Part shown: positions 5,662-33,799 of the stretch, piece by piece
Position numbering within the stretch: the first letter of the stretch is position 1
Layout: the number at the start of each line of letters is the position of its first letter
Virus genome (UHGV): UHGV-1361614
Length of the DNA: 60,498 nt
Source of the DNA: a virus
Reading direction: 5' to 3' (one strand)
The notes under the pieces: model-generated
What the model was told of the DNA's origin: nothing
Seen by the model: the letters and a program-made list of their open reading frames with translations, nothing else
Database searches by the model: none
Translations under genes and position numbers: made by a program

Positions 5662-7011
5662 TTAAAAAGTAACAAAACGAATTTCTATATCGTTTCCGTT
5701 AATAACAATCCTTTCAATGCATTCTTTTAAAACTCGGTTTTTCTCCTTAACAGAAAGCGTGTCCCAAACATCTGAAACATGCTTAATCTTTTGGATTTTT
5801 TGCGTATTATCTGGCTCCTTTCTGTCATTTTCAGTTAAAAGTTGTTTGTTCAGTTTTTCAATTTTCTTTTCCGTCTCCTTAATGACATCCATTAAGTTTT
5901 TACTTGGATTTTCTGCATAAAGTACATATAAACGTTTGACATGCTCATTTTCTTTTCTAATTGCTACCTTGAGCTTTGCAACCGGATCATCTTTCTGGCT
6001 AGTATTCGCTTTAACATTGATAGCAAACTTTTTAAAGCAATCTTCCACATCTGCTTCTATAATCTCTGCGTACGCTTTAATGTTAATACAGTTTTTATCC
6101 CGAATCATGTAACTCTTGCCACTATATTGCGAATAGCAAATAATACGCGGCTTTATTCCGTCCCATTTATGATATCTCATCCTAGCACCACATATTCCGC
6201 AGTAACATAATCCGCTCAGCAGATATCCATTTGACACATGTGCATTTGTTGAGCGCTTCTTTCGCATATCTTGTGCCATATAAAAAATCTCTTCATCAAT
6301 AATCGGTTCATGCTTGCCTTTATAAACGTTCCCTTTATATTCAATTAAACCAATATACGTTTTACGTTTAAGTGCATTATCTACAGCCTTTTCACAACTA
6401 AATCCAAGGATATTAGCAATTCTATTACATGAGTATCCTTTCAGATAAAGCCCAAATGCATCGCGAACCAGAGCTGCCTTATCAGCATCGATATGGAGTA
6501 TTCCATCATTTCTATCGTAATGATACCCAACAGGAATATTTCCACCACCAGGCCAAAGACCGTTTTTTACACGTTCAACCATTCCTGAAGACATTCTCAT
6601 TCGGATGACTTCCCTCTCATACTGGTTCATTGCTGCATTCATAGTTAGCATCATTCTGTCCATTGGGTTTTCGGTACGTAATTCTTCAGTCATTGATATT
6701 ACTTTAACTCCGTAGCTCGGAAGTGTTTTGTAAAACAAAGTTAATGTATCAATAACATCACGGCTCATACGATCCAATTTGTAGATATAAACTGTATCTA
6801 TAATTCCACTCTTCGCATGGTCTAGTAACTCTTGTATTTTCGGCCTATCGAGCTTGCTTCCACTATACCCCCCATCTATGTACCACTTGTCAACAGTAAT
6901 ACCGTGTTTTTCACAGTAATCCATGATTTTTTGTTTCTGCATATCCAAGCCGTATTTTTCAGTCTGTGTCTCTGTTGATACTCTCAAATATGCCACCTGT
7001 AATTTGCTCAT
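5662..7011 (-). CDS. large serine recombinase (phage integrase)
   Basis: 449 aa; N-terminal resolvase-type catalytic domain with the Ser in LRVSTETQ, a recombinase domain and a Cys-rich zinc-ribbon region CYCGICGARMRYH; AGGAGG RBS. Confidence 0.9.
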   Translation of the reverse strand: MSKLQVAYLRVSTETQTEKYGLDMQKQKIMDYCEKHGITVDKWYIDGGYSGSKLDRPKIQELLDHAKSGIIDTVYIYKLDRMSRDVIDTLTLFYKTLPSYGVKVISMTEELRTENPMDRMMLTMNAAMNQYEREVIRMRMSSGMVERVKNGLWPGGGNIPVGYHYDRNDGILHIDADKAALVRDAFGLYLKGYSCNRIANILGFSCEKAVDNALKRKTYIGLIEYKGNVYKGKHEPIIDEEIFYMAQDMRKKRSTNAHVSNGYLLSGLCYCGICGARMRYHKWDGIKPRIICYSQYSGKSYMIRDKNCINIKAYAEIIEADVEDCFKKFAINVKANTSQKDDPVAKLKVAIRKENEHVKRLYVLYAENPSKNLMDVIKETEKKIEKLNKQLLTENDRKEPDNTQKIQKIKHVSDVWDTLSVKEKNRVLKECIERIVINGNDIEIRFVTF

Positions 7012-8786: not shown

Positions 8787-9406
8787 TCATCTACAAGGTT
8801 TCTATCTGTATGAACTTCAGGCTGCTTTCGTGATCTCTCCCACGTTCTTACAGCTGCCTTCCAGTCTTTCATTTTGTTCTTACCTATCATCCAACCTTTA
8901 GAAACATAGAAGTTTACAAAAGATTGAGCATCAATTCCATTTCCCCTTTGCTCACAATAAGTCTGGACTTCATCCACTGTTGGGGGAATAAAAATCTGTC
9001 TTTTAGGTTCAGACTTTTCCTCTGCCTTAGGTGGTTCATCTGGTAGTTCGTTATGTGGTTCATTCTGATTTTCGGTAACTTGGAATTTGTTGTAATTTAC
9101 TACGTTTATCAGCGTTCCTCTGTTAGTTCGTTCCGTGATCACCATTTGCTCATCTTCTAATAACTTAAGGAAACGCTTGACTTTATTCCTAGACCATGAC
9201 CAGCGGGCGCTTAGCTTCTCTATACTGAACATATAGGAGCCTTTAGGGACTATGGTAGTCTTGCCGTCTACCAACATTTTTACATCCTTATGAGAAGCCG
9301 AAAGCAATATATCTATCCAAGCTGATCTTTTATCAAATGCCTCCCTACTGTTCCAAATAGAACAGTCAAATATTTGTCTATGTAGCTTTATCCAGCCTTT
9401 TTCCAT
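8771..9406 (-). CDS. phage replisome organiser / DnaD-like replication initiation protein
   Basis: 211 aa; N-terminal MEKGWIKLHRQIFD..W winged-helix pattern typical of phage replisome-organiser N-termini; C-terminal DnaD-like FVNFYVSKGWMIGKNKMKDWKAAVRTW. Confidence 0.6.
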   Translation of the reverse strand: MEKGWIKLHRQIFDCSIWNSREAFDKRSAWIDILLSASHKDVKMLVDGKTTIVPKGSYMFSIEKLSARWSWSRNKVKRFLKLLEDEQMVITERTNRGTLINVVNYNKFQVTENQNEPHNELPDEPPKAEEKSEPKRQIFIPPTVDEVQTYCEQRGNGIDAQSFVNFYVSKGWMIGKNKMKDWKAAVRTWERSRKQPEVHTDRNLVDEWRQS

Positions 9407-9848
9407 AATCCCACTCCACTATCATTCAATCGTTGTAAATTGTTTCAATAAGCAGCCTTCGCAAAGTTGCCTATCTTCATATTCATAAAGACGATCCACC
9501 TCTGACTTGCACTTATCACAAATTAATATTTTTCATACCGCTTCGGGCAGCTATCTCCCAAACAAGGATATCCAGGAGTAGCGCACCCACAGCAGTTGTT
9601 CACTTCTCTAACCATTCTATCCTATCTCCTATAATCTGGATCTGGACACAGTTCAGTATACGCATATGGTGGCATATTTGCTGACCATGTATTTGGTCTG
9701 TCCCGAAGCGCAGCTGCATCACTGGCTGCTTGAATAGCTTTGAGACGTAATGCATTTGCTTTTCTCTGCGCATCCGCGCTCTTTAATCTCATGTTTTTTA
9801 TCCTCCGTTAATTTTCTCATCCTTTGAATAACATACTCAAATGCTGGT

Positions 9849-10448
9849 TTATTCCGTTTCCACATCTTGTCCCTCTTTCAATAACTCCTGGAATTTTTCA
9901 TACTGTCTTTGGGATATCTTATTATTCGATTTATCGGGTCTAACAGCGATTGTAAGGTGTTTTTCTGCGATAGACGATAATTCCCTAGCCATAGCCTTTC
10001 TGCCTTGCTGTATACCGTCTCTATAGCCTCTAACAGGTTTAAATTCATTTATCTTTTCCTTGCCTTCGCCCTGACCGCCAGCAGTCTTATTGTATCGGCA
10101 TTGATAACCTTTCTTAGTGTATTCCAAAATCCAGTATTGTTCCCATTTGTCAAGTTCTGACACTGGATAATGAATAAAATTCAACTTCCACCCATATGGG
10201 TTATCTTTGCTATAAAATCCTCTCTTTTTAATCGAAAGGTCAATATGCTGGTATCCCGACAAATGAGAAATATTTCTTTCCAAACAATCAACACTCTGAC
10301 CGATATAAAAGTACGATATTTCATTTTCATCCGTCCTCGTATAGAAGTAAATTCCACCTTGATTTTTCATGCTAGGACAAGCATTCAATATACGTTCTTT
10401 GTTTTTGCTTTTTATGGCATATAATTGTTTATAATTCTTGCTTGACAT
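9849..10448 (-). CDS. GIY-YIG nuclease domain protein
   Basis: GIYFYTRT...YIGQS...R..SH motif near the N-terminus. Confidence 0.65.
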   Translation of the reverse strand: MSSKNYKQLYAIKSKNKERILNACPSMKNQGGIYFYTRTDENEISYFYIGQSVDCLERNISHLSGYQHIDLSIKKRGFYSKDNPYGWKLNFIHYPVSELDKWEQYWILEYTKKGYQCRYNKTAGGQGEGKEKINEFKPVRGYRDGIQQGRKAMARELSSIAEKHLTIAVRPDKSNNKISQRQYEKFQELLKEGQDVETE

Positions 10449-15614: not shown

Positions 15615-16640
15615 CTATTTTCCCTCCATTGATTCTTTTACATACAAATCCATTGAATAGCACAGTTTAATGCAATTTCCATGTAATGCATGGTTTTTCC
15701 AAGCATTATATTTTTCGTAAAACTTCTCTTCTGGCATTTTTCCAACCTTAACCAGCTCTATCCATTTATGGATGTTTTTCCTGGATCTACGTTTGTTGCT
15801 GCCATTCAATTTCCTTATATATTTGCCCTCAGCCGTTACATAATGATGAAAACCTGTAAAAGATATCCCGCACTTAAACGGAACTATTTGTGTTTTCCCA
15901 TTTAGTTCCAATCTAAGGTTTGCTAAAGTTTGCCTTATCTGGTCTAAGCACATCTTCAAATACCCTTTGTCTGGATGAATTAAATAAAAATCATCCATAT
16001 ATCTTCCGTATCTGGAAATTTTGAGATTTTCTGTAATAATATGATCCATTTCATCCAGCATCAGAAGCGCATATACCTGTGCTACCTGATTTCCAAGAGG
16101 AATTCCCAAACCTTCTGTGCTGTCAATAAATAAATGGTTCAGCCATTTTACGTACTCATCTGGTAAATGATAATCTACAATCTGCTTGAGGATTTCGTGA
16201 TCTATCTGGTAGAAAAACTTTCTGATATCACACTTAAGGATCCAGCCAGAAAGTCCATACTGACTGTAAAAATCTAGCATCTGTTCTTTCAGACAATCCA
16301 TTCCAAAATGAGTGCCTTTTCCCTCTTGCCCGGCATAATTCGTTCTGATAAAACGATTCTTTAATACCGGATGCAGAACTTCATCACAAAGACAATGCTG
16401 CACTACTTTGTCTTTAAAAGAACACGATTTAATCACCCGTTCTTTAGGCTCATATATTTTAAATTCATTGTACGAATTCATACTATATGTCTGATTTTCC
16501 AGTTGCTCTTTTAACAGGTGCAAACCTTCCAAATTCATAGTCTGAAATTTTGCACAGCTACTATTAAAACCTTTTCCAGACTTAGCTTTCCTATACGCTT
16601 TATACAGGTTCTCATAACTGCATATAACATCTTTATACAT
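15615..16640 (-). CDS. reverse transcriptase, DGR type (DGR-1)
   Basis: 341 aa; YMDDF (YxDD) motif; motif 4 GIPLGNQVAQVYALLMLDEMDH resembles the DGR-specific GNxxSQ pattern; no maturase or endonuclease domain; cognate TR lies immediately upstream. Confidence 0.85.
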   Translation of the reverse strand: MYKDVICSYENLYKAYRKAKSGKGFNSSCAKFQTMNLEGLHLLKEQLENQTYSMNSYNEFKIYEPKERVIKSCSFKDKVVQHCLCDEVLHPVLKNRFIRTNYAGQEGKGTHFGMDCLKEQMLDFYSQYGLSGWILKCDIRKFFYQIDHEILKQIVDYHLPDEYVKWLNHLFIDSTEGLGIPLGNQVAQVYALLMLDEMDHIITENLKISRYGRYMDDFYLIHPDKGYLKMCLDQIRQTLANLRLELNGKTQIVPFKCGISFTGFHHYVTAEGKYIRKLNGSNKRRSRKNIHKWIELVKVGKMPEEKFYEKYNAWKNHALHGNCIKLCYSMDLYVKESMEGK

Positions 16641-16738
16641 TGTAAAAATTCCTTTGTATTTACCCTTCCTGGGAGGGTCATGAGCTTTTTTGTATCTTTT
16701 ACTGATTTCGGCTTAATGCCTACTCTTACTATCTGTGT

Positions 16739-16825
16739 GATACAGAATGGACGAACACCGTCGTTGTTATTGTAGTTGTTGTTGTTGATATTGCCAGAAG
16801 GAGAAACAACGGTTTGTACAGCTCA
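16739..16825 (-). repeat. DGR-1 template repeat (TR)
   Basis: On the coding (minus) strand this copy carries AAC/AAT codons (NINNNNYNNNDGVRPFCI) at every position where the two VRs differ; shared 3' core CGGTGTTCGTCCATTCTGTATC. Confidence 0.8.
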
Positions 16826-16837
16826 CAGCCCAATTAC

Positions 16838-17209
16838 TTATCTTTCTTTGTCCTTCGTTCTCCAAGCAATCGCCATATGCTTAATATCAGACACCATTTT
16901 TGACCAATATTCCATGCTTTTCACATTGATAATATTTAACTTCATGGACAATTCAATGTAAAACAGAAGCTCATCGCAATGCGTGATTGCTTTGGTTTGC
17001 AATTCTGATCGGTCCCTGCGATATGACTTCAAATCGGTTCTGTTTGCTTCATACAGATACTCATAAATTTCAAGAGCCTTATTCTGCATTTTATCTACAA
17101 GAGAAAATCTGTATTTCTTCGGATACCGGTTACAATTTGAAGTCACTCGCAAGGTATGTTCCGCCAGTTCTTTTGCTTTAAGTATTACTTTTAAATCATT
17201 TTCTGGCAT
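16838..17209 (-). CDS. avd: accessory variability determinant (Avd), 23S rRNA intervening-sequence-protein-like four-helix bundle
   Basis: 123 aa, basic; DLKVILKAKELAEHTLRVTSNCNRYPKKYRFSL matches the Avd/IVS-protein pattern; canonical position between target and TR. Confidence 0.7.
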   Translation of the reverse strand: MPENDLKVILKAKELAEHTLRVTSNCNRYPKKYRFSLVDKMQNKALEIYEYLYEANRTDLKSYRRDRSELQTKAITHCDELLFYIELSMKLNIINVKSMEYWSKMVSDIKHMAIAWRTKDKER

Positions 17210-17213
17210 TTAC

Positions 17214-17820
17214 TTATTCCTCTGATTCAAAGATTGAAGAGGAAAAGATACAGAATGGACGAACACCGTCGCAGCAATCGCAGTAGCGGTTGAGGACACG
17301 GCCAGAAGGAGAAACAACGGCTACTGTACTGGAATAATCATTACATGGTGTACTCCACGGGCTAATTAACCACCACCATTTATTTGCATTAGGAATGTAT
17401 TTCCTATATTTTCTGTACTCATCTACTGTCAGAAGCGACACTTTATCAGTGCATGATCCGTATTCTGTCTGACCGTCAAGAGAAAGGAGATTTCTTTCAA
17501 ACCCTAATACATTTCCTTCTCCTATTTCTTTTTCCAGCTTTTCTAAAAATTCTTTGTTCAGATAACTTCTCAGTTTACTTGTTTCCCAGTTGTTATCGTC
17601 AGAATCAAACTCTTTATTCCCTATAGATTCTGCCAGGCACACATATCCCTCACCTGCAATATTCAGAATTTTCCATGTTGTTCCGGCAAGCTGAAATTCA
17701 TCTCCGATTGAAAGTCCAGCTGGTAACTTCTTGTTCTTAGAATTATTACCATTCAATGCATTAATTTCTTTTTTTAACTCATCGATCTGATCCTGAAGTG
17801 CTTTCATTGTTAATGCCATG
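17214..17820 (-). CDS. DGR-1 variable target protein B (C-terminal VR)
   Basis: Paralogue of the upstream gene; VR residues RVLNRYCDCCD sit where the TR encodes NINNNNYNNND; start at the ATG 2 nt after the upstream stop, with an AGGGAG RBS. Confidence 0.75.
17247..17332 (-). repeat. DGR-1 variable repeat, VR-B
   Basis: About 85 bp matching the TR; roughly 18 mismatches, all at TR adenines on the coding strand. Confidence 0.8.
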
Positions 17821-17821
17821 A

Positions 17822-18427
17822 TTATTCTCCCTTCGATACAAAGATATGAGATTTTAAGATACAAAATGGACGAACACCGCCGTTGTTATCGTAGAAGTGG
17901 CTGATGAAATTGCCAGAAGGAGAAACAACGGCCATCGAGTACTCCCATCCACGTTCTTTGGTGCTCCATGGGGTGCATGTCCACCACCAGTCACCCAGGT
18001 CTTTATTGACAAGCAGATCATTATACTTTCTGGTTTCATCAAAGGTAATCGGTCTTACCTTGCATACACAGTCTTCAAATTCGTGCTGCATATCCACTGA
18101 TGTAAGGTTTACTTTATGTTCAACCAGGTTCTCTGCGCCAAGCGCATTTTCAATGATTGGCTGAATATCAGCTTCAATCATTTTTTTAAGGCTTGATTTG
18201 TTGTAATCTTTCGTATTTCGGTCGAATACAACGTCCTCTGCCATAAATTCTTTTGAAATAACTTTTGTTGTCTGACTAGAACCATCCTGATCCAGCACGA
18301 TAAAATCATGCTCCCCGATCTTAAATGTTTCCCTAGGCTTCAGTTCTGACAGCCTTACTTTGTTCTTTTTCTCTGCTTCTTCCAACTGCTTTACTAACTC
18401 TCTTGCCATATCTAAAGCTTTGCTCAT
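17822..18427 (-). CDS. DGR-1 variable target protein A (C-terminal VR)
   Basis: 201 aa; C-terminal WWWTCTPWS...VVSPSGNFISHFYDNNGGVRPFCI; VR aligns to the TR with adenine-only changes. Confidence 0.75.
   Translation of the reverse strand: MSKALDMARELVKQLEEAEKKNKVRLSELKPRETFKIGEHDFIVLDQDGSSQTTKVISKEFMAEDVVFDRNTKDYNKSSLKKMIEADIQPIIENALGAENLVEHKVNLTSVDMQHEFEDCVCKVRPITFDETRKYNDLLVNKDLGDWWWTCTPWSTKERGWEYSMAVVSPSGNFISHFYDNNGGVRPFCILKSHIFVSKGE
17858..17945 (-). repeat. DGR-1 variable repeat, VR-A
   Basis: Matches the TR; differences only at TR-A positions (N to F/S/H/D/G). Confidence 0.8.
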
Positions 18428-18606: not shown

Positions 18607-20523
18607 TTATCCCTCCACTTTTAATTTTGTATTATCGTTTACAACTAACATAATCAGCTGACCGTTAACCATATTAGAACCCTTTTTCTGGTTTTCAGAA
18701 TCCAAGGATTCACAGTCATCCACCCAGATTGGAACTGATATTCCGGCAATTTCCTGTACACTCTGGCAAATATCAACTCTACCCAAGATCCGATTTCCCT
18801 TGTTGCTAATCGTTGTAAGGATAGATTTTCCGTCAACCATAGGTACGCAGGTTGATTTATAGTTGCCATTTTTTGCAGTTTCAAATAATTGCCACTGTAC
18901 CAGCTTGAACCTCTGGTTAATTTGGTCTGAAAGTTCTTCATTCTTAGCTTTCTCCAATTCAGTAAGCAGATAGAGGACTTTTTCTGCATCAGCCTGCTGC
19001 TGCACCATGTCAGTTCTCTTTTCTTTTAACCCTTCCAGGCGCTTTTCTTCGGCTTCCGTATTTGCCATGAGGATTTTTGATTCACAGCCAAAAAGTTCTT
19101 CTCTTAGCTCCTGTTCTTCTTCCTTAAGCGCCTTTCGATACTCTGAAGTGTCTTCCATGCTCTTCAGAAGCTTTTCTTTTTCGGCAATCTGTTTTGTGAT
19201 CTCCTGATATTCAGCTGTATCGGATATATCAATCTTTTCAGGAAGTTTTGAAAACTTATCTTCCAATTCTTTTGCCTCTAAAGTCACTGCATCACGCTCA
19301 GCTTTTCGCTCTTCCAAATCTAATCTCAACTGTTCTAAATCTTTTGTTTTTTTCTCTAACTGATCTTTGGTATTATTTCCGTCTGCGGTAATCGAAGCAA
19401 GTAAATCCGCTTTTTCCTTTTCAAAATTGGCAAAAAGTTCTACCTTTTTCTCTTCCGGGTAAAGCTGCTTGCAGTATGGGCAAACAAGCGAGGTTTCATC
19501 CAGTTTCCGTTCATTTTCTTCTTTCCACTCTATACGGATGCCTTCCAGCTTTCCTTTTAACCGATCAATAGCGGCTACAGCCGCAGAAATTTGGGTTTCT
19601 ATAGCATTTATACCTATCTGTAATTCGCCACGATCCGATATCTTTAGCGCAGAAGCGCTCAACAGTTTAGCTCTTTCTTCCACTAATGCCTCGTTTGCTT
19701 TTTTTTCAAGCCCAGACAGTTCCATTTTTAGCTCTAAAACACCGTCTGTCAGCTCATTATAATTCTTATAAAGTTTTTCGCTTTCAAGCTGCTTATCAGC
19801 GTTTTCCTGAATTTTCTGCTTAAGGCAGTTTTTCTGTACTTCCAAATCAGATACGTTCATATCTGACTTGGCTTTAATATCCGCTTCCTTTTCTTTAATC
19901 TGTCCCTCTAATATGGGAAGCTCTTTTTTAATATCAGCTACTTTTTTCTTATTCATAGCCGATAATTCCTCTACAGAATATTTTTCAAGCAGCACTCCCA
20001 ATTCTGCCAGATCTGGATATTTGTTTGTCACAGACGCATCCGGAATGTCTTTGACTGTCTGGAATAAAAACTTGCGGACCTCATCCGGTTTCTGATTAAG
20101 GAATGCATTGATATTGCTTGACATCTTAAAAGCGTTATCAACTTCCAGGTATTCATTAAATGCCGTTTTAGTTTTCGGAACATCATTAATGAAATATTTG
20201 TTATCATCTTTATATGAGCTTCCGTCTTTGATATAGGTACGCTTCTGCACCTTGCGAACTGTAATCTCTCTTCCGTCCATATCCAGAACCAGAGTTACTT
20301 CCACATCACCGTCTACCGGTGATCCATTTACCTCACGCCTAACAACTGGATTACTCCTCATTTTATAATCGCAGTCAAACAGACACCATGTATATGCGCT
20401 TGCAATGCTGGACTTGCCCCTCCCATTTGCCCCTGAAATGACGGTCTTATCATGGAAATCAAAGCCCTGCTCTTCATAACACATGAAGTTTTTGAGGTGC
20501 ATGCTTAAGAGTTTAATCCTCAT
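18607..20523 (-). CDS. SbcC/Rad50-like SMC-family ATPase
   Basis: 638 aa; N-terminal Walker A GANGRGKSS; long coiled-coil middle; C-terminal signature / Walker B. Confidence 0.7.
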   Translation of the reverse strand: MRIKLLSMHLKNFMCYEEQGFDFHDKTVISGANGRGKSSIASAYTWCLFDCDYKMRSNPVVRREVNGSPVDGDVEVTLVLDMDGREITVRKVQKRTYIKDGSSYKDDNKYFINDVPKTKTAFNEYLEVDNAFKMSSNINAFLNQKPDEVRKFLFQTVKDIPDASVTNKYPDLAELGVLLEKYSVEELSAMNKKKVADIKKELPILEGQIKEKEADIKAKSDMNVSDLEVQKNCLKQKIQENADKQLESEKLYKNYNELTDGVLELKMELSGLEKKANEALVEERAKLLSASALKISDRGELQIGINAIETQISAAVAAIDRLKGKLEGIRIEWKEENERKLDETSLVCPYCKQLYPEEKKVELFANFEKEKADLLASITADGNNTKDQLEKKTKDLEQLRLDLEERKAERDAVTLEAKELEDKFSKLPEKIDISDTAEYQEITKQIAEKEKLLKSMEDTSEYRKALKEEEQELREELFGCESKILMANTEAEEKRLEGLKEKRTDMVQQQADAEKVLYLLTELEKAKNEELSDQINQRFKLVQWQLFETAKNGNYKSTCVPMVDGKSILTTISNKGNRILGRVDICQSVQEIAGISVPIWVDDCESLDSENQKKGSNMVNGQLIMLVVNDNTKLKVEG

Positions 20524-22794: not shown

Positions 22795-23073
22795 TTATTC
22801 AATGAAGTATCCAATATCAACACCAAAGTAATTTGCTATCTTTATTAATTTATCTGTCTTTGGCATCGATTTTCCTGATTTCCAATCAGAAAATGTGCTT
22901 CTGGCTAACCCCAACTCCTCTGATAGCTTGTAAAACGTAACGTTTCTAGCCTTCGCAAGAGCATCCAGTTTCAAAAAGCTTTCCTTTCTTTTATTTTGGC
23001 TCAATATATCACTTCCTTTCTTGACTTTAGTTAAGATTTCCGTTATAATAGTTCCACCAAATGGCATCTTCAA
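22795..23073 (-). CDS. Cro-like XRE-family HTH repressor
   Basis: HTH KLSEELGLARSTFSDWKSGKSMP; divergent from the CI-like gene across a 530-bp control region. Confidence 0.7.
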   Translation of the reverse strand: MKMPFGGTIITEILTKVKKGSDILSQNKRKESFLKLDALAKARNVTFYKLSEELGLARSTFSDWKSGKSMPKTDKLIKIANYFGVDIGYFIE

Positions 23074-23260: not shown

Positions 23261-23643
23261 TACTCCTTGCAATCCACCAACTAATGGCAACTATTTTGCT
23301 GAACCAAAACTGCATAAGTGGTGGAGTGTTTGAAGAAATATTGTTGTCGTGCAATATGTTGAAAAACTGCAAAACACAAACGGTAAAAAAATTGGGGCAA
23401 AAGCTGTTAGTGACGACACACTAGCAGTTTTTTGCTTTATTACGTTTGAAAATCCTAACTATATCTTGATTTAAGTTAGGAAAGTGTGTATACTATGAAT
23501 TGTCCAGAAACATATTATACAGTTTTTATATTTTTGTTTTTTAAAGTTGAGATTTCCTAACTTGTTTCTAGTATACGTTAGGAGGTCTTGTTTGTCAACC
23601 CAAAAAGTTGAGAAATTACAACTTTTTAAATGGAGGCCTTATT

Positions 23644-23979
23644 ATGTACGAAAGATATTGCAAATTAAGAGATTTAAAAGAGCTAACCGATGCTCAGGTA
23701 TCTAAATATTGTGGCTTGGAAAAAAGCACCTTTACCGACTGGAAGAAAGGTAAAAGTATCCCAAAGCTTCCGAAAATAATAAAAATAGCAGAATGCTTAG
23801 ATTGCTCTATTGATTATTTAGCTACAGGAAAAGAAAAGTCATATCCTGAGCTGGCAGACTTACTCATAAATATTCGTAACGATAAAGCTTTAATATACGC
23901 ATTAGGAAAGTATTTTAAATTAACAGAAGAAAATAAAGAGCACGTCCTTAATACAATTGACGTGCTTAGTGAGGTGTAA
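23644..23979 (+). CDS. CI-like XRE-family HTH repressor
   Basis: Start chosen at MYERYC with a GGAGG RBS; HTH LTDAQVSKYCGLEKSTFTDWKKGKSIP. Confidence 0.7.
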   Translation: MYERYCKLRDLKELTDAQVSKYCGLEKSTFTDWKKGKSIPKLPKIIKIAECLDCSIDYLATGKEKSYPELADLLINIRNDKALIYALGKYFKLTEENKEHVLNTIDVLSEV

Positions 23980-25296: not shown

Positions 25297-26613
25297 TTAA
25301 TATAATATAACAATAATTATGCCTGACCCTCCAGCGCCACCGGCGCCGCCTGTATAGTCATAGCCGCCACCGCCTCCACCTCCGCCAGAGCCGGAGTTCA
25401 CAGCAGCGTCACGCCCAGCTTCTGCATAAGCATAATCATAGCCCTCTGACCCGCTACCACCTATTCTGTAACATCCGCGTCCACCATTTCCACCGCCGTA
25501 ATCTCCGCCGGTGCCTCCATATCTAGGGGTTCGTCCTCCGGTTCCTTCTCCACCACTGGCGCCACCGCCAGAGTATGCAGTACCCGTGTCTTCTCCGAAT
25601 GCTTTTGTAGTTCTTCCTTGACCAGATCCTGGGTTTCCCCCGCCATCTCCGCCGTTGGTTCCGCCATTATATCCACCATTATCATCATACGAATATGAGC
25701 CGCCGCCTGAGCCGCCTTTTCCGGTTCCGAAGTTCGCTCTGCTGCTATGCCCGTATGCTCCACCATTAGCACTGCATAGCTTTTCCCCGTTTCTTGCGAC
25801 ATAACTTTCTCCGCCATTAGTGCCAGATCCAGCAACGCCTCCGTTACCTACAATACAGTTAAGCACAGCTCCCACTTTTACTGCTATGCCTTTAACCGTG
25901 CTAGTATATCCGCCGCCGCCTCCGCCTGCGCCATAGGTGCTAGTTCTGTCGTCCTCTTCGCCCCAGCCACCACTTCCGCCGCCGCCAACGCAAAATATAT
26001 CCGCAAAATTATATCCAGATGGAATTTCAATATCCTGACTATATTTTATTATCTTAGTAAGCGGCTCGCTAGTAGCACATTCATCTGTAAGAGTATTTCC
26101 TTGCAAATCTCCAAGAGTGCTTGTGGCGTATGCAGTACATTTAAAATAATACTTGGTATTAAGGTTTGGCATTGCAAATATTGCTTGCGACCAACCACCA
26201 GAGTTTTTGTTATCTCCATATCCAGTATGAAGCCATGTCCACGGACCATCAGGTCCATTAGTGCTATAGCTAATAATAACTCCAGAAAACGGCCTTCCTG
26301 CCGCAGCATAAGGATTTTGCCATTTTAGCAAAACCTGCCGTCCGCTATATGCTGCCGCACTAAAATTTAAAATGCTTCCAGCTCTAAATTTTCCAGTAAG
26401 TTTCGTATGTAAGTCTGTATTATAAAAAGTCCTGCCTTCATAGACATATTCAGCTGTGGCTGTTCCTGTCAATTCCAGAGTGCCTTCCATAGCTTCATCA
26501 TCTGAGCCATTAAATACAGCTGTTTTTCCTTTCGGTATATCGTTTATTGTAGCTGTGCATTCGTCCGAAATGCCAACAGATCCTCCACTGCCAGTCATCA
26601 AAACTCGTCCCAT
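25297..26613 (-). CDS. glycine-rich tail fibre-like protein
   Basis: 438 aa; N-terminal beta-rich domain then a long GGxGG / G-rich C-terminal half. Confidence 0.55.
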   Translation of the reverse strand: MGRVLMTGSGGSVGISDECTATINDIPKGKTAVFNGSDDEAMEGTLELTGTATAEYVYEGRTFYNTDLHTKLTGKFRAGSILNFSAAAYSGRQVLLKWQNPYAAAGRPFSGVIISYSTNGPDGPWTWLHTGYGDNKNSGGWSQAIFAMPNLNTKYYFKCTAYATSTLGDLQGNTLTDECATSEPLTKIIKYSQDIEIPSGYNFADIFCVGGGGSGGWGEEDDRTSTYGAGGGGGGYTSTVKGIAVKVGAVLNCIVGNGGVAGSGTNGGESYVARNGEKLCSANGGAYGHSSRANFGTGKGGSGGGSYSYDDNGGYNGGTNGGDGGGNPGSGQGRTTKAFGEDTGTAYSGGGASGGEGTGGRTPRYGGTGGDYGGGNGGRGCYRIGGSGSEGYDYAYAEAGRDAAVNSGSGGGGGGGGYDYTGGAGGAGGSGIIIVILY

Positions 26614-26614
26614 T

Positions 26615-27073
26615 TTATACTCCTTTCAAGCCTACAATGATATCTGTTTCTGGTTTTTTGTAAACTTTGAAAATTATGCTCCCATTCACTGTCTTTGCAG
26701 TTCCAGAAGCAACTCTCCCAAAGGCTTTCCCATACGCCTTTTGTACGTCCGGACTTGCCCCATCCTCTAACAAGCTTACCAATATAGGCTCATCATCTGC
26801 TCTTATCCCAGAAACATTTACCGTTTGAACGTATGGAGCCGAAGATCCGGTCCATCCTACAGCAGTTAACGTGACCTCTGCAATATGGTTCAATTGATTT
26901 ATATTTTTATTGGTTTTATTGATGTCGTTTGCACCGAATGTATCTCCTACCTGAGAATAATTTGTCTTATCTACCAGGGAAATAGTTCCGTCTGAATTTG
27001 ATGTTTGAGAATATTTTCTACTTGTTCCAGAGGCTATAATATCATCCTTGTAATTTGTTTTAAGTGTTTCCAT
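26615..27073 (-). CDS. hypothetical tail protein
   Basis: 152 aa, S/T/N-rich. Confidence 0.4.
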   Translation of the reverse strand: METLKTNYKDDIIASGTSRKYSQTSNSDGTISLVDKTNYSQVGDTFGANDINKTNKNINQLNHIAEVTLTAVGWTGSSAPYVQTVNVSGIRADDEPILVSLLEDGASPDVQKAYGKAFGRVASGTAKTVNGSIIFKVYKKPETDIIVGLKGV

Positions 27074-27483
27074 CAGGTTTTTACTCCTTTCATGTTACCT
27101 AGGCGGAAAGAAAGTTTTGGAAGCCCTGCTTTCTGTCTTCCTAGCAACTCATATATTTTTAAAATTGCTGACTCAATCCTGTTTAATTCTCCATATTGGA
27201 TAAATGGACCATTGTCATAAAATCTCTGAGCAATTCCAAAATCTTGTGTGAATACGTTCTGGTTGAGTATTTTAAGATTGTCCTCAAACAGATTAAATTC
27301 ATCAGCATAAAAATAATCCGCATAATCACCTTTATCATTTCCCATGTCATTAAAATCAAAAGGCAAATAAAGATTTTCTGCATATTCGTGCAGATACTCC
27401 AAATTGTTTTTTATCCTGTTGTAATCAGAAATGTTAAATCGGTCTGTGCTGATCCAATTTGTTTTAGGGGCTATCCATGCCAT
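27073..27483 (-). CDS. hypothetical tail protein
   Basis: 136 aa. Confidence 0.4.
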   Translation of the reverse strand: MAWIAPKTNWISTDRFNISDYNRIKNNLEYLHEYAENLYLPFDFNDMGNDKGDYADYFYADEFNLFEDNLKILNQNVFTQDFGIAQRFYDNGPFIQYGELNRIESAILKIYELLGRQKAGLPKLSFRLGNMKGVKT

Positions 27484-27493
27484 TTTCTCCCTC

Positions 27494-28057
27494 CTAGCTC
27501 GTTCTTATCCACATATAGCAAGTAAAATACGGTTGCAATGTTGATATGTCCTGATTCGTATTGGTTACCTCTCCGTGGTTGTGACCCCAACCGTTTCCAG
27601 CATATTGTGATGACGCGTTGGTTCCCTTGTTCCATCCAGAAAACCATGATCCCAATGTATTCTGAAAGCCATAGTTAGAAGCTGCCGAGTCAAATCCTCC
27701 TGCTATTTCGCTTTTGCTTATTGCTAATAGCTCGTTGTTAAAACCATGATTATGGGATGGCATTTCATTGATTGTTAAAACGTGATCTTGTGTAGCGTGG
27801 GTGTGAGAATATTTATTCGTTTTATATCCTCCGGTTTTTCCTGATTGATTGAATTCATCTTGTTCGGTATCAACGCACACCAGCGTTCTGCCTGGTGCTA
27901 AAAGTTTCCAGCTTCCTCCAAATATGTTCGACGGATTTTCTGGATTAATCGAAAGATATATCGCTCCAACAGGATAAATATCCAGTGCTGTTATCTGCTT
28001 TATCTTTCTTTGTCCTTGTCCCTCATAGCTTGCGTTATTTTGCCTTGCCATTGTCAA
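27494..28057 (-). CDS. phage tail-collar domain protein (receptor-binding/fibre-related)
   Basis: VGAIYLSINPENPSNIFGGSWKLLAPGRTLVCVD matches the tail-collar-domain signature. Confidence 0.6.
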   Translation of the reverse strand: MTMARQNNASYEGQGQRKIKQITALDIYPVGAIYLSINPENPSNIFGGSWKLLAPGRTLVCVDTEQDEFNQSGKTGGYKTNKYSHTHATQDHVLTINEMPSHNHGFNNELLAISKSEIAGGFDSAASNYGFQNTLGSWFSGWNKGTNASSQYAGNGWGHNHGEVTNTNQDISTLQPYFTCYMWIRTS

Positions 28058-30345
28058 TCCTCCTGTGGCGAAACTGTTTTTCTAATCTTTGCAGTTCCAG
28101 AAAAAGCGCCATTAAAGGTTATTTCATGTTCGTAAATTCTGGCATTTATGCTACTATCTCTTTTAGTTTCCAAAGCAACAATATCTCCCGAGTCTATACG
28201 TGGTTCTCCGGCATAAGAAACAGAATAGTTGACACTGTTATAGTAATAATCACTTAACCAGTCCACCATATCTTGTGCGTGTTCTTCTGTGCTTATCAAT
28301 ACATTGTTTTTCCATGTTTTCACAACACCAACGCTGTTGATCCGTTTCGAGGTGACTTTTTCTGTCACAGAATAAGCCTTTCCATCCACGGAAATTTCAT
28401 GAAGTCCGGTCAATGAAGACGTGTCAACCGTAACGAAATAGCTACTGCTTTCAGTGATTGTAAGTTGCTGTCCATCAGCTGCGACAGTTACGTCATAAGA
28501 TGCTTCTGTAAAGTAAAAAGTATATGTATCATACTCTGTCACATCTATGCTTTCCTGAAAAATGTTTTTCACTTCATCCGTTTTGCCGTAAATATGGCGG
28601 ATCACATCCACCTGCATAACTTTTTCTTCTTGAGTTGCAACCGGGCTGGTTTTTACAACATCATAATTCATGCTATAGTCTGACATATCACCAAATAGCA
28701 CGTTATCAACCGTAATTCTAGCGTTTGGATGTCCCTTTGTAAATTCCAGAACAATTCTATCAAAATTGGATAATTCATCTGTAATATTACATTCAATATC
28801 AGGATCTGATACTATAATTTGTTGCATTTTCTCGCTTTGATAATAGGTTTTAATAACAAATTCTTCTGGGGCAACATTTCTGAACTTTATGGTAAATCCA
28901 AAAAATGTAGCAGCAGCCTCTAAATCAATTGTTATAACCGGATTTACGCCAAAATTTCCATCATTATCAGCTACAGCGCCGCTCACATATCCAATATTCG
29001 TTGAATAATCATCTTTATCTCTTGGAATAAAGTTAATGCTGCCATCTACAACCGAAAAATCGTTGCTTGCCATAGCATACGCTTCTTTTGCAGAACTAAT
29101 TAGCACATTTTTTTGCTCGCCAAATATCGTTGTATTTTCAAGTGTTGGAAATATTTCTGGTCCAGGATACAATGTGGTGTCTGGATACAACAAATTATCT
29201 TCATGTTCCGGTGTTGACATATCCGGAATAAATGACGCAAATATCTTCACAATCCCATGCCGATCTGCGCTCAAAATACATCTTCCGGCATTTGCTATAA
29301 TTTGCAGCGCCTCTGCATGGGTAACAACTGGTAACGGATTATAAACAATAATATCTTTCAGATACGGATCAATACTGTATTTATCCTCTTCAAGTCCCGC
29401 ATCCGTAAGCACATCTATTGCCAAGTCATATAGGTTTATTCCGCCCTCGTAGTATTGACCGCCATAATATGTTCCAGTTAACTTCCAATCAAACACATCA
29501 ACCATTGTGAATTTAGCTTCTGTATCCGTGGCACTCCATGTTTTTAAATAAGCAACAAATTCCGGTAACCATTCAATTGTGCCGCTTCCATCCACATCAT
29601 AGCCAAGCCTTGCTTTCAGCTCTTGCCCCTGTTCCAGATAAGATATGGCGCTTTCGTGGTTGCTAGGGTTATAGTATAAATTTTGGTTATCAACCGTAAG
29701 TGTCATATCCTGGCTTGGCAGCGACTCCGAAATCTCAGAAGCATATTCCTTGTAGGTAAAGTTCTTAACTTCTTTGTTTGAGAATGTATTTGAAATTCCA
29801 CAAATAAATTGATATATTCTCAGTCTTCCATTGCCATTCACCATCTTCAAAGGAGTAATGATCATGTAAGTAACAGCGTCAAACGTGTCCTCTGTTACAA
29901 ATATCTCTTTAGCGTTGCTGTAAGCCTTTTTACCGCCGTCATATTGCAACTCGAATAATTCTGGGTACATCTCCCCAAAATCGATTGTGACCCCCTTTAT
30001 GTCTGCCACGTTGCCATCAAAAGAAATATATATGCGGTCAAGTAGCTTTGCAGTCACAATTCCATTGTTGTAATAGTCAAGATCTGCATCTTCTGGCGGA
30101 AGAAAATACATGCTGCCATCAATTTTAGAGAAATCCTGTTCGCCAGTTGCATATATGTGGGATACCGTATTAGCCTTGAACGCTTCTTCCTGGTTTGAAA
30201 AATATGCAAAATCATTATTTTTTTCTTCTGCGACCACATTATCCTGTGCAACCGAACTAATAATACCAATTCTGGCAGTAATATATGCCCGGTTCCTATA
30301 CGGTTTTTTCATGGCGTTTTTATACGCTGCACTGGCTTTCTGCAT
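28054..30345 (-). CDS. large tail structural protein (putative baseplate or tail-tip protein)
   Basis: 763 aa; its position after the distal tail genes suggests a Tal/baseplate role. Confidence 0.55.
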   Translation of the reverse strand: MQKASAAYKNAMKKPYRNRAYITARIGIISSVAQDNVVAEEKNNDFAYFSNQEEAFKANTVSHIYATGEQDFSKIDGSMYFLPPEDADLDYYNNGIVTAKLLDRIYISFDGNVADIKGVTIDFGEMYPELFELQYDGGKKAYSNAKEIFVTEDTFDAVTYMIITPLKMVNGNGRLRIYQFICGISNTFSNKEVKNFTYKEYASEISESLPSQDMTLTVDNQNLYYNPSNHESAISYLEQGQELKARLGYDVDGSGTIEWLPEFVAYLKTWSATDTEAKFTMVDVFDWKLTGTYYGGQYYEGGINLYDLAIDVLTDAGLEEDKYSIDPYLKDIIVYNPLPVVTHAEALQIIANAGRCILSADRHGIVKIFASFIPDMSTPEHEDNLLYPDTTLYPGPEIFPTLENTTIFGEQKNVLISSAKEAYAMASNDFSVVDGSINFIPRDKDDYSTNIGYVSGAVADNDGNFGVNPVITIDLEAAATFFGFTIKFRNVAPEEFVIKTYYQSEKMQQIIVSDPDIECNITDELSNFDRIVLEFTKGHPNARITVDNVLFGDMSDYSMNYDVVKTSPVATQEEKVMQVDVIRHIYGKTDEVKNIFQESIDVTEYDTYTFYFTEASYDVTVAADGQQLTITESSSYFVTVDTSSLTGLHEISVDGKAYSVTEKVTSKRINSVGVVKTWKNNVLISTEEHAQDMVDWLSDYYYNSVNYSVSYAGEPRIDSGDIVALETKRDSSINARIYEHEITFNGAFSGTAKIRKTVSPQED

Positions 30346-31211: not shown

Positions 31212-31886
31212 TTAAAGCTCATAATCTGGATAAACAGCTTCCCAAACATCTTTATGATAAGCATTAATCGACCCATAATTAGCGTCGAAGATCTTCTTGA
31301 CTTCGTACCCCATACGTTCCCCAGCCTCTTTTAGCCTTCTCCATTTGAATGTTTTCCAAGAAACATTATTCAGTGCTGCTACTCGCTTGATAGAGTACCA
31401 ATCTTTGCTTGTATCAAGCTGTGCCCGTAGCTCTGCTTCCCGATCCAGGCTTTCCAAAAGCTGTGCGATAGCGTCCCGGTAAGACATCGGCATATTCATC
31501 TTATCGTCTTTCTTCTGGAAGTAATTGTCAACTAGGCGGTCATACACTTCCCACGCCTGATCCGTGTTCAGGGACTTAGCGTGAAGAAAAGCACCTTTTT
31601 CTGTCCAGAGGTAAATTGTTTTTGCATTTTTCAGACCGTCGTGATTTTCCAGACGGTTTACAAATAAGGCCTTTTCTTCGTTTTCAAGTTTTATAAAATG
31701 TTTTCCTTCTACAAAACGATCAATATTGTGGTTAAAATTGTACGAGATTGTTTTTCTGTCCGTTCCATATGCTTCTGCAATCTGCTGTGTTGTCAATACT
31801 CTCTGGCATCTGTACTCTGTTACTTTTAATCCTTCCATCCAATTATCTCCTTTTATTTTTAAGCAACAAAAACGCCCACCAGACAT
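31212..31886 (-). CDS. antirepressor-like protein (ORF6N/KilA-N-type N-terminus, Ant-type C-terminus)
   Basis: 224 aa. Confidence 0.6.
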   Translation of the reverse strand: MSGGRFCCLKIKGDNWMEGLKVTEYRCQRVLTTQQIAEAYGTDRKTISYNFNHNIDRFVEGKHFIKLENEEKALFVNRLENHDGLKNAKTIYLWTEKGAFLHAKSLNTDQAWEVYDRLVDNYFQKKDDKMNMPMSYRDAIAQLLESLDREAELRAQLDTSKDWYSIKRVAALNNVSWKTFKWRRLKEAGERMGYEVKKIFDANYGSINAYHKDVWEAVYPDYEL

Positions 31887-32071
31887 AGATTTTCTACATC
31901 TAGTGAGCGTGTTTCTTAAACTGTTTTTGCCGTCCTTACTCAGTTCGTCCTATCCTTTAAGCCTTGTTTTTCCCGCAACGGCTATTGGGCAAAGCTGATG
32001 GATTTGGCTAAATTTTACCCTTTTATTATACCTGTTTTGGAATGGAATATCAAGGTTTATAACGTATTTGA

Positions 32072-32788
32072 TTACCTACCAAAATATGATCTGTCAAGCT
32101 CTTCTAACCGGTCAAGATAACTGTCTGCCAATTTTCCAAGGTCTGTGAAGTGCTCAACAAGGTCAAGTGGATGATATGGAGCATGGCCAACTTCTTTTTT
32201 GTAAATTTCATTTGCCTTGTCCAAGTCATACTCTTCGCCAATTTTTAGCATAATGTTGTAATGCAGTTGAGACAACGGAGCATTGGCATTGTTGCAAATC
32301 CTGTACATCCTCCGCTGATTTCTAGCATACCAGCTAGGATTTTTCGGTATAGGTGTATTGCTTGGCTGGCAAACTGAAGATTGCTCCAAAGTTGCTGGTT
32401 TTGCTTTTGCCCGAAAGTATGTGTTCACCAACTCTCTCTGGACTTTCCAAGATAAATCATCTGTAAAGGTTTTGACTATCATCAGATAGCCGCTTTCTGT
32501 AAGCAAATAAGTTATAAGGCTTGGATTTCCCTTAATTATTTCATTAGGGGAATATCGTTCCCCTAATTCTTTTCTTGTCATTTCAAAGTAATCCTCACCC
32601 AAAATAAAATGCTTTTTATGCTTTTGAAAAGATTTCTTTGCGGTATCTGTTTGTTTTCCGTGTACTCTGTCAATGTCTTTTAGTGTCACAACCCTCTGCC
32701 CGTTGTACTCTCTCACTGGCATTTCAGTATTTTCAATGGTAATGACTTCTTTCATTTTTTCACTCAATCGTCTGCTGGATAGTTCCAT
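32072..32788 (-). CDS. ORF6N/Bro-N-like DNA-binding domain protein
   Basis: 238 aa; N-terminal VVTLKDIDRVHGKQTDTAKKSFQKHKKHFILGEDYF pattern. Confidence 0.55.
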   Translation of the reverse strand: MELSSRRLSEKMKEVITIENTEMPVREYNGQRVVTLKDIDRVHGKQTDTAKKSFQKHKKHFILGEDYFEMTRKELGERYSPNEIIKGNPSLITYLLTESGYLMIVKTFTDDLSWKVQRELVNTYFRAKAKPATLEQSSVCQPSNTPIPKNPSWYARNQRRMYRICNNANAPLSQLHYNIMLKIGEEYDLDKANEIYKKEVGHAPYHPLDLVEHFTDLGKLADSYLDRLEELDRSYFGR

Positions 32789-33008
32789 TTGTCACTCCAA
32801 TAGCAAGCTCCATGCCAGTAACACCGGCATAGGTAACTGCATCGCCATAGCAATCTGTAAGGAGCATATCAAGCTCATCACAAAACTGTGCGCTCATTCT
32901 TTCTCTAACATACTCCATGACTGGGTCAAACATTTTCTCTATCTTCCACCCAATATCTTCATTGTTTCTAAGATAATTTGTAAATGATAACTCGTAAAAT
33001 TTGTTCAT
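32760..33008 (-). CDS. hypothetical protein (83 aa)
   Basis: Start moved to the internal ATG MNKFYELS, which has an AGGAGG RBS. Confidence 0.4.
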   Translation of the reverse strand: MNKFYELSFTNYLRNNEDIGWKIEKMFDPVMEYVRERMSAQFCDELDMLLTDCYGDAVTYAGVTGMELAIGVTNGTIQQTIE

Positions 33009-33776: not shown

Positions 33777-33799
33777 AAGAAAAGAGGCTCTGTGGCCTC

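Follow-up and report, generated by a model that had tools for sequence, protein, structure and literature searches.

A diversity-generating retroelement with two small DUF6273 targets in the early operon of a temperate Lachnospiraceae phage

Why should a phage carry a cassette with the look of a diversity-generating retroelement (DGR) among its recombination genes, and is the cassette a working one? The question is raised by a 2.8 kb locus (15615-18427, minus strand) of the virus genome UHGV-1361614, whose 60,498 nucleotides, here called the window, were analysed as a whole. We are highly confident that the cassette is a complete, recently active DGR, i.e. a functional element, situated in the early lytic operon of a temperate Lachnospiraceae phage, and that two small lectin-fold proteins are the substrates which it rewrites at about ten codons. 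A preliminary description, made from the letters of the sequence, had proposed the canonical order target-target-avd-TR-RT (TR, template repeat; RT, reverse transcriptase), and all DGR components were indeed located in that order on the minus strand, namely target B, target A, Avd, TR and RT. The names A and B were assigned in this work, A being the avd-proximal target, and VR stands for variable repeat.

17822-18427, minus strand: target B, 201 aa (PF19789, phrog_9958), paralogue of target A
17858-17934, minus strand: VR_B; its variable codons are residues 173-183 of target B
17214-17819, minus strand: target A, 201 aa, avd-proximal, start codon ATG at 17819
17247-17323, minus strand: VR_A; its variable codons are residues 174-184 of target A (R V L N R Y C D C C D)
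16838-17209, minus strand: Avd, 123 aa (phrog_3206)
16739-16815, minus strand: TR, 77 nt, with 24 adenines, chiefly in AAC/AAT codons; a 22-nt gap separates avd from the TR
16641-16738, minus strand: spacer (Sp), 98 nt, the TR-RT interval and non-coding 3' part of the DGR RNA
15615-16640, minus strand: RT, 341 aa (PF00078, phrog_1423)
18607-20523, minus strand: SbcC/Rad50-like ATPase (phrog_77 1.4e-49, AAA_23 1.9e-14), the upstream flank
Between the SbcC-like gene and target B, minus strand: open reading frame (ORF) of 52 aa
14865-15614, minus strand: RecT, which abuts the RT stop codon, the downstream flank

The evidence that carries this reading is in the three repeats. They are collinear, gap-free copies on the minus strand, with a strict core of 74 nt (16739-16812, 17247-17320 and 17858-17931) that reaches 77 nt when three 5' adenines are included (to 16815, 17323 and 17934, respectively). 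The three copies had been described as about 85 bp long, which is slightly too long because the additional 5' bases diverge at non-A positions. When the repeats were aligned and the mismatches tabulated by TR base, the pattern was adenine-specific and not spread over the four bases: all 16 mismatches between the TR and VR_A are at TR adenines (14/14 in the core, hypergeometric p = 2.5e-10), and of the mismatches between the TR and VR_B 11 are at adenines, the remaining one being a C>T at TR position 71 (8/9 in the core, p = 1e-4). The earlier claim that mismatches occur only at TR adenines is thus true of VR_A, while VR_B has one other change (11/12 at A), and the earlier count of about 18 substitutions, all at A, is mildly too high for the copy at 17247 (16) and the wrong number for the copy at 17858 (12). 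Translated in the frame of the targets, the TR gives T V V S P S G N I N N N N Y N N N D G V R P F C I, with eight AAC/AAT codons plus ATC, TAC and GAC; the placing of adenines in AAC/AAT codons is the classical DGR design. The VRs end 30-33 nt ahead of the target stop codons.

With the TR adenines treated as wildcards, only three sites in the 60.5-kb window have at most one mismatch at the 53 non-A positions, and the next best site has 24-25 mismatches at these positions; therefore there are exactly two VRs for this TR in the window, and no additional one was found elsewhere in it on either strand. The same preference is seen among relatives, for which a per-position mismatch table was compiled from 102 distinct TR/VR pairs. 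These pairs have 1312 mismatches at A sites and 289 at non-A sites, the latter concentrated at both ends of the TR, and between TR positions 4 and 67 the A sites are mismatched mostly in 40-75% of the pairs and nearly all the non-A sites in 0-4% (position 17: 7%).

The RT matches PF00078 (5.4e-16) and phrog_1423 (5.9e-102), and comparison with profiles and structure databases places it nearest to the DGR RT of Bordetella phage BPP-1: its closest solved relative is bRT (8ub7_A, E 4.6e-36, residues 4-318 aligned), the next RT following at 1.3e-7. Both motifs named in the preliminary description of the 341-aa protein are present, as an intact YMDD at residue 214 and as the motif 4 LGNQVAQ, which corresponds to IGSLTSQ in bRT, i.e. 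Ala-Gln replaces the usual Ser-Gln. The sequence LGNQ[VA]AQ is kept in 42/43 of the relatives matched, the Ala-for-Ser variant being fixed in the lineage. The 123-aa protein that had been called Avd-like is confirmed by a match to phrog_3206 'Avd protein of DGR' (9.2e-23); it is basic (isoelectric point 9.3) and has the canonical position by the TR. Its matches to NF033474 DivGenRetAVD (9.6e-13, 48 vs 80 bits) and PF22296 bAvd (6.7e-5, 24 vs 40 bits) are sub-threshold, PF05635 is matched at 1.1e-5 but below the cut-off, and a sequence search of the PDB with Avd gave no match. Apart from its identity, Avd draws attention by its conservation: in loci L001-L079 its conservation exceeds that of the targets in all relatives and that of the RT in most, with identities of typically 79-93% for Avd, 63-83% for the RT and mostly 47-70% for the targets. 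Such strong conservation is unexpected for a small accessory protein and could reflect a constraint at RNA or protein interfaces, or use by more than one RT.

Is the element still at work? Related RTs are carried by 71 loci of IMG/VR, and the nearest relative (L001) matches the window over 7 kb with 98.8% identity. The 87 differences between the two include 14 in VR_A, which are overwhelmingly at TR-adenine positions, and 21 that lie within VR_B or directly beside it; the TR has none. The metagenomic homologues, 120 per target (81-99% identical for A, 71-95% for B), tell the same story, as their Shannon entropy is concentrated at ten positions of an eleven-codon stretch (residues 174-184 of A and 173-183 of B), i.e. 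at the codons templated by AAY, ATC and GAC; in target A it exceeds 2.5 bits at nine variable codons and is 1.5 bits at the tenth. Variation among these proteins is thus centred on the adenine-templated codons, and mutagenic retrohoming appears to be ongoing, judging by comparison between genomes and among metagenomic homologues.

The RNA of the element was analysed in an alignment that spans the interval between the avd stop codon and the RT start in 18 diverse relatives. The RNA elements, together with the conserved DNA that follows each VR, are as follows.

16820-16831, minus strand: 5' strand of the helix, GGGCUGUGAGCU, in the avd-TR gap; pairs with 16675-16686
16675-16686, minus strand: 3' strand of the helix, AGCUCAUGACCC, in the spacer
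16663-16677, minus strand: stem-loop, with the A-rich run UAAAUACAAAGGA at 16650-16662, which also holds the RT ribosome-binding site
16687-16696, minus strand: candidate primer strand, invariant GAUACAAAAA, directly 5' of the helix and complementary to the TR 3' end
16739-16747, minus strand: TR 3' end, UUCUGUAUC, TR positions 69-77, with IMH*-like, non-transferred behaviour (IMH, initiation of mutagenic homing)
17217-17246, minus strand: conserved element 3' of VR_A, UUUUCNUCUNCAAUCUUUGAAUC, with an inverted repeat at 17217-17244
17835-17857, minus strand: conserved element 3' of VR_B, UUAAAAUCUCAUAUCUUUGUAUC

A 12-bp helix brackets the TR, and it is well supported by covariation: compensatory double changes are found at 9/12 pairs, 97.7% of the cells are paired, none of 500 shuffles scored as high, and slid controls gave about 40% pairing. 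Directly after it comes a short stem of 3 bp with compensatory changes at 2/3 pairs. The spacer as a whole is highly conserved over 36 distinct relatives and has a consensus fold with covariation, and GAUACAAAAA is conserved in 18/18 of the aligned relatives. A further complementarity lies inside the TR, where the 5' part ACCGUUGUU could pair with AACAACGGU near the 3' part (16729-16785) in a predicted 9-bp helix around the variable codons; its pairs are kept in 97% of the cells, but there are no compensatory changes, so it may be a coincidence or a result of coding constraint. Intrinsic terminators and strong promoters within the cassette are no more numerous than expected from shuffled sequences, and the apparent terminators at 16750-16762, 17258-17270 and 17869-17881 arise because GACGGUGUUCGUC is common to the TR and the VRs.

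The boundary of the transferred segment can be placed precisely. The last mutable adenine is A68 (16748), and in the 102 pairs the mutagenesis boundary is exactly after it. Beyond A68 the TR and VRs differ in a systematic manner: position 69 is T in the TR and G in 58% of the VRs, position 71 is C in the TR and T in 92%, and position 75 is mismatched in 45% of the pairs, mostly where the TR has G; in the window VR_A equals the TR 3' of A68 and VR_B has T at position 71. These non-A differences resemble the behaviour of an IMH*/IMH pair, and the cDNA probably does not overwrite this part. We infer, from complementarity, invariance and the transfer boundary, a primer duplex between the TR 3' end and the spacer, and the complementarity predicts a cDNA start at A68 that would match the mutagenesis boundary; the analogue for priming is Sp A56 of BPP-1 (bioRxiv 10.1101/2023.10.23.563531). 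On the target side, the 23-30 nt conserved after each VR probably are a target-recognition (homing) signal. Column identity in the DNA after VR_A is 0.86-0.87 as compared to a background of about 0.75, among the most conserved of the gene, and it reaches 0.92-0.96 after VR_B, in the most conserved stretch of that gene; the hairpin after VR_A is imperfect (-8.2 kcal/mol, z -3.1, as DNA).

Put together, these elements suggest the following course of events. The operon transcript would supply an RNA comprising avd-TR gap, TR and spacer, in which the 12-bp helix between gap and spacer would close the TR into a loop and, with the stem-loop and the A-run, would correspond to the 'cPRT Stop' of BPP-1. 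The sequence UUCUGUAUC at the TR 3' end would pair with the invariant spacer sequence GAUACAAAA, and the RT, together with Avd, might then prime in cis from a spacer adenosine and copy the TR from A68 toward its 5' end, misincorporating opposite the TR adenines. The cDNA would replace the homologous 3' segment in both adjacent paralogous genes, so that ten AAY-templated codons would be randomised in each, while the region just 3' of A68 and some 23 conserved nt past each VR would escape overwriting and probably mark the targets in an IMH-like manner. The products would be two soluble 201-aa proteins, each with an N-terminal helix and a DUF6273 C-type-lectin-like (C-lec-like) domain whose variable loop would be the ligand-binding surface.

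What are the proteins that are being diversified? The two targets are paralogues, as had been noticed (30% identical, same architecture), and are 201 rather than 200 aa long, target A starting at the ATG at 17819 and not at the TTG at 17864 given in a mechanical list of ORFs. Both pass the gathering threshold of DUF6273 (PF19789, 23.5 bits), target A with 39.6 and target B with 24.5 bits (2.8e-5), and target B matches phrog_9958 at 9.3e-28. The C-terminal lectin-like fold suggested earlier is borne out by this Pfam assignment and by much weaker matches to folds of C-lec or formylglycine-generating enzyme (FGE) type, i.e. Legionella Lcl, the Bacteroides fimbrial protein 4eps, PvdO, the Treponema DGR target TvpA and langerin. 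Signal peptides, membrane segments and hydrophobic segments are absent from both targets, and both are soluble and acidic. An AlphaFold model of target A from a broader alignment (predicted local distance difference test, pLDDT, 70.9; predicted template modelling score, pTM, 0.66) has an N-terminal helix at residues 5-24 and a confident core at 30-150, so that structure prediction recovered the fold family but left the VR loop at low confidence; a first model was discarded (pLDDT 43.6, built on a shallow alignment of 76 sequences in two tight subfamilies). The target profile found only chance S100 matches at E >0.05 among PDB sequences, and Foldseek gave no match at E up to 1e-3 among viral predicted structures. 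The small single-domain architecture is common, with 252 clusters (50% identity) matching at E up to 1e-30, mostly 170-270 aa in length. Metagenomic proteins also include fused double DUF6273 proteins of 380-395 aa and one protein of 6979 aa that matches the profile in 26 stretches (P0241, P0242, P0311 and P0312 were noted in this connection).

Two other accounts of the cassette have to be weighed against a complete and recently active DGR. The RT could come from another retroelement (a group II intron, a retron or a defence-associated RT), the repeats then being merely a duplicated gene end. The best-scoring named NCBIfam model is indeed that of the group II intron RT/maturase (97.6 bits), there are weak Drt and retron matches, and no dedicated DGR-RT model was matched in the NCBIfam scan. 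On the other hand, all these scores are far below the curated cut-offs (TIGR04416 97.6 against 300, retron St85 39 against 235, Drt2-5 17-47 against 200-550) and Rfam at gathering thresholds gives no intron or retron RNA, and on these grounds a group II intron, retron or Drt identity was rejected. The BPP-1 enzyme is, moreover, the closest solved protein by 29 orders of magnitude, and the non-coding copy of the repeat between avd and RT differs from the others only at its adenines (save for the C>T in VR_B), so we give this account practically no credence. The DGR could also be a relic, with VRs that were diversified long ago and strain differences that stem from recombination among old alleles. 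In VR_B of L001 four differences from its own TR, near the 5' end, are at non-A positions and resemble the TR of another relative (L002), which suggests some allele exchange, and VR differences are also seen between L083 and L084, two relatives that lack the DGR. But RT, Avd, TR and all the RNA elements are intact, with purifying and covarying selection acting on them, the TR has retained 24 adenines in AAY codons, 35 of the 87 differences at 98.8% identity are in or beside two VRs of about 77 nt with none in the TR, and hundreds of near-identical metagenomic proteins differ only at AAY codons; we consider a relic very improbable. There are also points that weigh against the interpretation we prefer. 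Motif 4 of the RT has Ala where DGR RTs usually have Ser, and Avd scores under the curated NCBIfam and Pfam cut-offs. The VR loop of the target A model (residues 153-183) has a pLDDT <50, and there is no convincing hairpin after VR_B, only after VR_A. The primer duplex shows invariance and wobble tolerance but no compensatory changes in the 18 relatives, two relatives carry a G.A mismatch in it, and a competing local hairpin (16732-16747) occupies the same nucleotides of the TR 3' end. Finally, the evidence of activity is a comparison between genomes and not of diversification inside a single population.

It is instructive to compare this DGR with that of BPP-1 (mtd-avd-TR-brt). The likeness extends to the order target-avd-TR-RT, the adenine-specific transfer from TR to VR, with the 3' end of a gene for a C-lec-fold protein as recipient, an Avd that is basic, an RT homologous to bRT, and an RNA in which a duplex between an upstream segment and the spacer is followed by a stem-loop and adenosines, with a duplex of TR 3' end and spacer just 5' of it. 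In the cryo-EM structure of the BPP-1 bRT-Avd-RNA complex the 'cPRT Stop' consists of the avd:Sp duplex, a stem-loop and A-minor adenosines, and such duplexes were predicted in 207 other DGRs, including those of Bacillota (bioRxiv 10.1101/2023.10.23.563531). The differences are equally clear. There are two tandem targets here as opposed to one, and they are 201-aa DUF6273 proteins of the early operon whereas the BPP-1 target is a tail-fibre tip protein of 381 aa whose gene belongs to the tail module. The stop duplex has its 5' strand in the avd-TR gap rather than inside avd, the spacer has 98 nt vs 140 nt and the TR 77 nt vs 134 nt, motif 4 of the RT ends in AQ and not SQ, and the element after the VR is AT-rich here, with a hairpin evident only after VR_A. 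The target genes are found between the SbcC-like ATPase gene and avd, not in a tail module as would be expected of an Mtd-like tail-fibre receptor-binding protein.

Closer parallels are known from phages of gut Firmicutes. DUF6273, which is C-lec-like by modelling, is the VR-bearing domain of both targets of nd4/nd12, a large 'tentaclin' and a small tgt2 (Baykov et al. 2023, PMC10743442), and large and small DUF6273 targets are found in the Faecalibacterium phages Lelie/CP11 (PMC11792537) as well as in Toutatis (bioRxiv 10.1101/2024.10.15.618418). About 13% of the catalogued DGRs have two targets (Wu et al. 2018, PMC5758913), and two VRs, found in 43/67 of the relatives with a recognisable TR, are the norm in this phage family. 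One TR serving two tandem targets, called unusual in the preliminary description, is therefore common, and small DUF6273 targets are on record as well: two-target cassettes and DUF6273 targets have been published, so the kind is known, and it is the arrangement that differs. In nd4/nd12, Lelie/CP11, Toutatis and Brigit one TR likewise has two DUF6273 targets, in which the VR occupies the C-terminal end of the domain, their small targets (about 200-235 aa, single domain, flanking helices) are homologous to targets A and B and 29-36% identical to target A, and our RT shares 48% identity with the nd12 enzyme and 38-41% with the enzymes of nd4, Lelie, Toutatis and Brigit. But in those phages the second target is a large tentaclin/Hoc-like protein with immunoglobulin (Ig) domains, which adjoins the RT in the neighbourhood of the tail genes, and the small target is far away (>10 kb), whereas here both targets are small paralogues adjoining each other and avd-TR-RT, so that the early operon contains the whole element. 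No tentaclin-type target for this TR was detected in the window, and our targets differ from tentaclins as defined by Baykov et al. 2023 in being 201 aa long, with a C-terminal DUF6273 domain and no Ig or Fn3 domain. ThomasA is different again, being a 137-kDa secreted and probably wall-anchored enzyme in which the DUF6273 domain is not hypervariable and carries no functional assignment.

The place of the small targets in these genomes deserves comment. Toutatis gp24 is amid methyltransferase, regulator and replication genes, and nd4 tgt2 adjoins an exonuclease-like 'Pol III alpha' gene near that of the single-stranded DNA-binding protein (SSB). In Brigit (FP_Brigit, NC_047909) gp06, a 203-aa DUF6273 protein (L163, 3948-4559), comes after the switch regulators and before exo-exo-RecT, and it is a remote target of the Brigit TR about 41 kb away, with 7 A-site and 2 other changes (L165, 3624-3753). 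Small DUF6273 targets of DGRs are thus genes of the early operon, often beside exo/RecT, in at least four phage lineages, and they outlive the loss of the DGR. The papers on these phages call the small targets Mtd-like or of unclear function, without comment on their early placement, and no remark on the pattern was found in the literature searched.

The persistence of the targets can be followed among the relatives of our phage, whose RTs are found in metagenome-assembled genomes of Agathobacter, Acetatifactor, Tyzzerella, Muricomes, Faecalimonas and other Lachnospiraceae; a Megablast search with the region gave no match among GenBank phages, where relatives are seen at the protein level only. 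TgtB-TgtA-Avd-TR-RT is kept as a unit in essentially all the RT relatives (>70), always amid the same early genes, with identities to the window of 72-100% for Avd (at least 79% in the IMG/VR relatives), 63-100% for the RT and mostly 47-70% for the targets except in the two nearest relatives. Three VRs, and not two, are present in two loci, and in L027 (3624-5427) there are three tandem targets, the middle one being a chimera of an A-type body and a B-type C-terminal tail. When relatives were anchored on the SbcC-like gene, most had neither targets nor DGR, and about eight had TgtB-TgtA without Avd-TR-RT (L083, L084, L098, L109 and L156 among them). In L083 (about 9320-9900) an inserted HNH-type endonuclease gene is flanked by what is left of avd (its first ~60 nt) and of the RT gene (its last ~50 nt); the remnants show that the DGR core was lost while the targets stayed. 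The VRs of L083 and L084 differ at many TR-adenine positions despite the absence of the DGR core.

The same genome contains a second DGR, placed between the terminase and portal genes, which qualifies the earlier remark that the early location is unusual: the placement between SbcC-like and RecT genes is real and conserved, but the target of the second DGR is in the structural half.

49373-52953, minus strand: second DGR
49373-50734, minus strand: RT2, 453 aa (PF00078 2.2e-10, phrog_1423 1.7e-63), with canonical IGSYFSQ and FMDD
50913-51016, minus strand: TR2, which precedes RT2
51143-51246, minus strand: VR2, at the 3' end of the 612-aa ORF
51115-52953, minus strand: 612-aa target ORF (phrog_17147), its N-terminus weakly matching 'minor tail protein'

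TR2 and VR2 differ by 14 mismatches at TR2 adenines plus 2 others, and bRT (7e-8) is the only PDB match of RT2. No avd is adjacent to this element, its G+C content is 0.45 (TR2 0.57) vs 0.40 for the rest of the window, and related RT2 sequences occur in five IMG/VR contigs only. VR2 has 16 differences from that of a near-identical relative (L166), and TR2 has none, so by the same comparative test the second DGR is also active.

What, then, might targets A and B do? We lean towards the view that they bind a variable ligand of the host cell or the environment, as with other DUF6273 targets, and the early-operon position would allow an intracellular role. In line with how small DUF6273 targets are seen in published work, they might be virion-associated or released adhesins or accessories of receptor binding, in which case the DGR would broaden host or mucosal binding and the early position would be uninformative about the destination of the proteins; we would put this at even chances. 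Most of the characterised DUF6273 contexts are extracellular or virion-linked (tentaclins/Hoc-like proteins, the tail-fibre fusion of Pioen, the N-terminal domain in secreted ThomasA), and the N-terminal helix could oligomerise or dock onto a fibre. Against this stand the position of both genes, early, beside recombination genes and outside the structural half in >70 relatives, the lack of a signal peptide, a membrane segment or a recognisable virion-attachment domain, which agrees with the earlier statement that the targets have no obvious virion role, the existence of a separate DGR for a 612-aa protein of the structural half in the same genome, and the absence of proteomic support in the literature searched.

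Alternatively, the targets may be intracellular early proteins whose hypervariable surface binds a variable molecule of the host or of a rival phage (a defence protein, an envelope precursor, a component of a superinfecting phage), the DGR then serving counter-defence or exclusion and not adsorption. This idea is in keeping with the conserved early-operon position, the early location of the small DUF6273 DGR targets of unrelated phages (Brigit gp06, Toutatis gp24, nd4 tgt2), the persistence of the targets in relatives that lost Avd-TR-RT, the soluble, acidic nature of proteins that have no export signal, and the separate DGR of this genome with its target in the structural half; intracellular C-lec DGR targets have also been proposed in cyanobacteria (PMC7517822). 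But the support is contextual and gene position weakly predicts protein location in phages, DUF6273 is otherwise known from extracellular or virion contexts, and no known anti-defence homologue turned up, none having been specifically searched for; nor was there a directly relevant report on phage DGRs aimed at non-structural or anti-defence proteins in the literature searched. We hold an intracellular role of this kind to be rather doubtful. One may speculate further that the small single-domain DUF6273 family as a whole (targets A and B, Brigit gp06, Toutatis gp24, nd4 tgt2) are early intracellular binders, diversified against a variable cytoplasmic or envelope-precursor target, and not virion receptor-binding proteins, a generalisation that we advance as an unlikely but worthwhile conjecture.

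The remaining features of the window are those of a temperate tailed phage.

53733-55481: large terminase
47144-48586: portal
43889-44983: major head protein
34556-38821: tape measure
25297-30345: baseplate and Gly-rich fibre genes
38888-39664: endolysin
5662-7011, minus strand: serine integrase (phrog_95, 1.6e-106)
23608-23979, plus strand: CI-like helix-turn-helix (HTH) protein of the divergent switch
22795-23073, minus strand: Cro-like protein of the divergent switch
23598-23570, minus strand: near-consensus promoter of the divergent switch
23273-23433, plus strand: FuFi-1 RNA (RF02986, 142 bits, E 3.5e-31), between the divergent HTH genes
55992-56092, minus strand: Skipping-rope RNA (RF02924, 51 bits)

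Rightward of the switch, the early operon contains the Cro-like gene, an antirepressor, small ORFs, the SbcC-like gene, the DGR, RecT, a zinc-ribbon protein, an AAA ATPase, an HNH protein, a hydrolase and replication loaders. The serine integrase gene sits in the middle of the early/replication block and not beside the lysogeny switch at ~23 kb. FuFi-1 RNA ends in a terminator-like hairpin (23399-23432), and genes for tRNA-Met, tRNA-Tyr and tRNA-Gln (56107-56771, minus strand) come directly after the Skipping-rope RNA, upstream of the gene for the terminase. Within the tail-gene region, between the tape measure and baseplate genes, two ORF6N-domain genes and a gene for a Rha-family regulator (31212-34465, minus strand) resemble an inserted regulatory or moron block.

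As a DGR the cassette adds little, as the mechanism, two-target cassettes and DUF6273 targets are all documented already; its interest rests on the clean covariation of its RNA, the early-operon placement across lineages and the coexistence of two DGRs. It is a compact natural system, in which an element of 2.8 kb has a 77-nt TR, a 98-nt spacer, two soluble 201-aa targets and more than 70 sequenced variants, through which the RNA architecture known from cryo-EM of BPP-1 gains covariation support of unusual clarity and the cDNA start can be predicted with precision. The phage has two complete DGRs, with RTs of different types and one without an Avd of its own, and this makes it a natural test of mutual insulation. 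The early-operon pattern makes the role of non-structural DGR targets in phages experimentally testable, and if the small targets were early intracellular binders, roles would be split between the two DGRs, one for the 612-aa protein of the structural half and one for the early binders.

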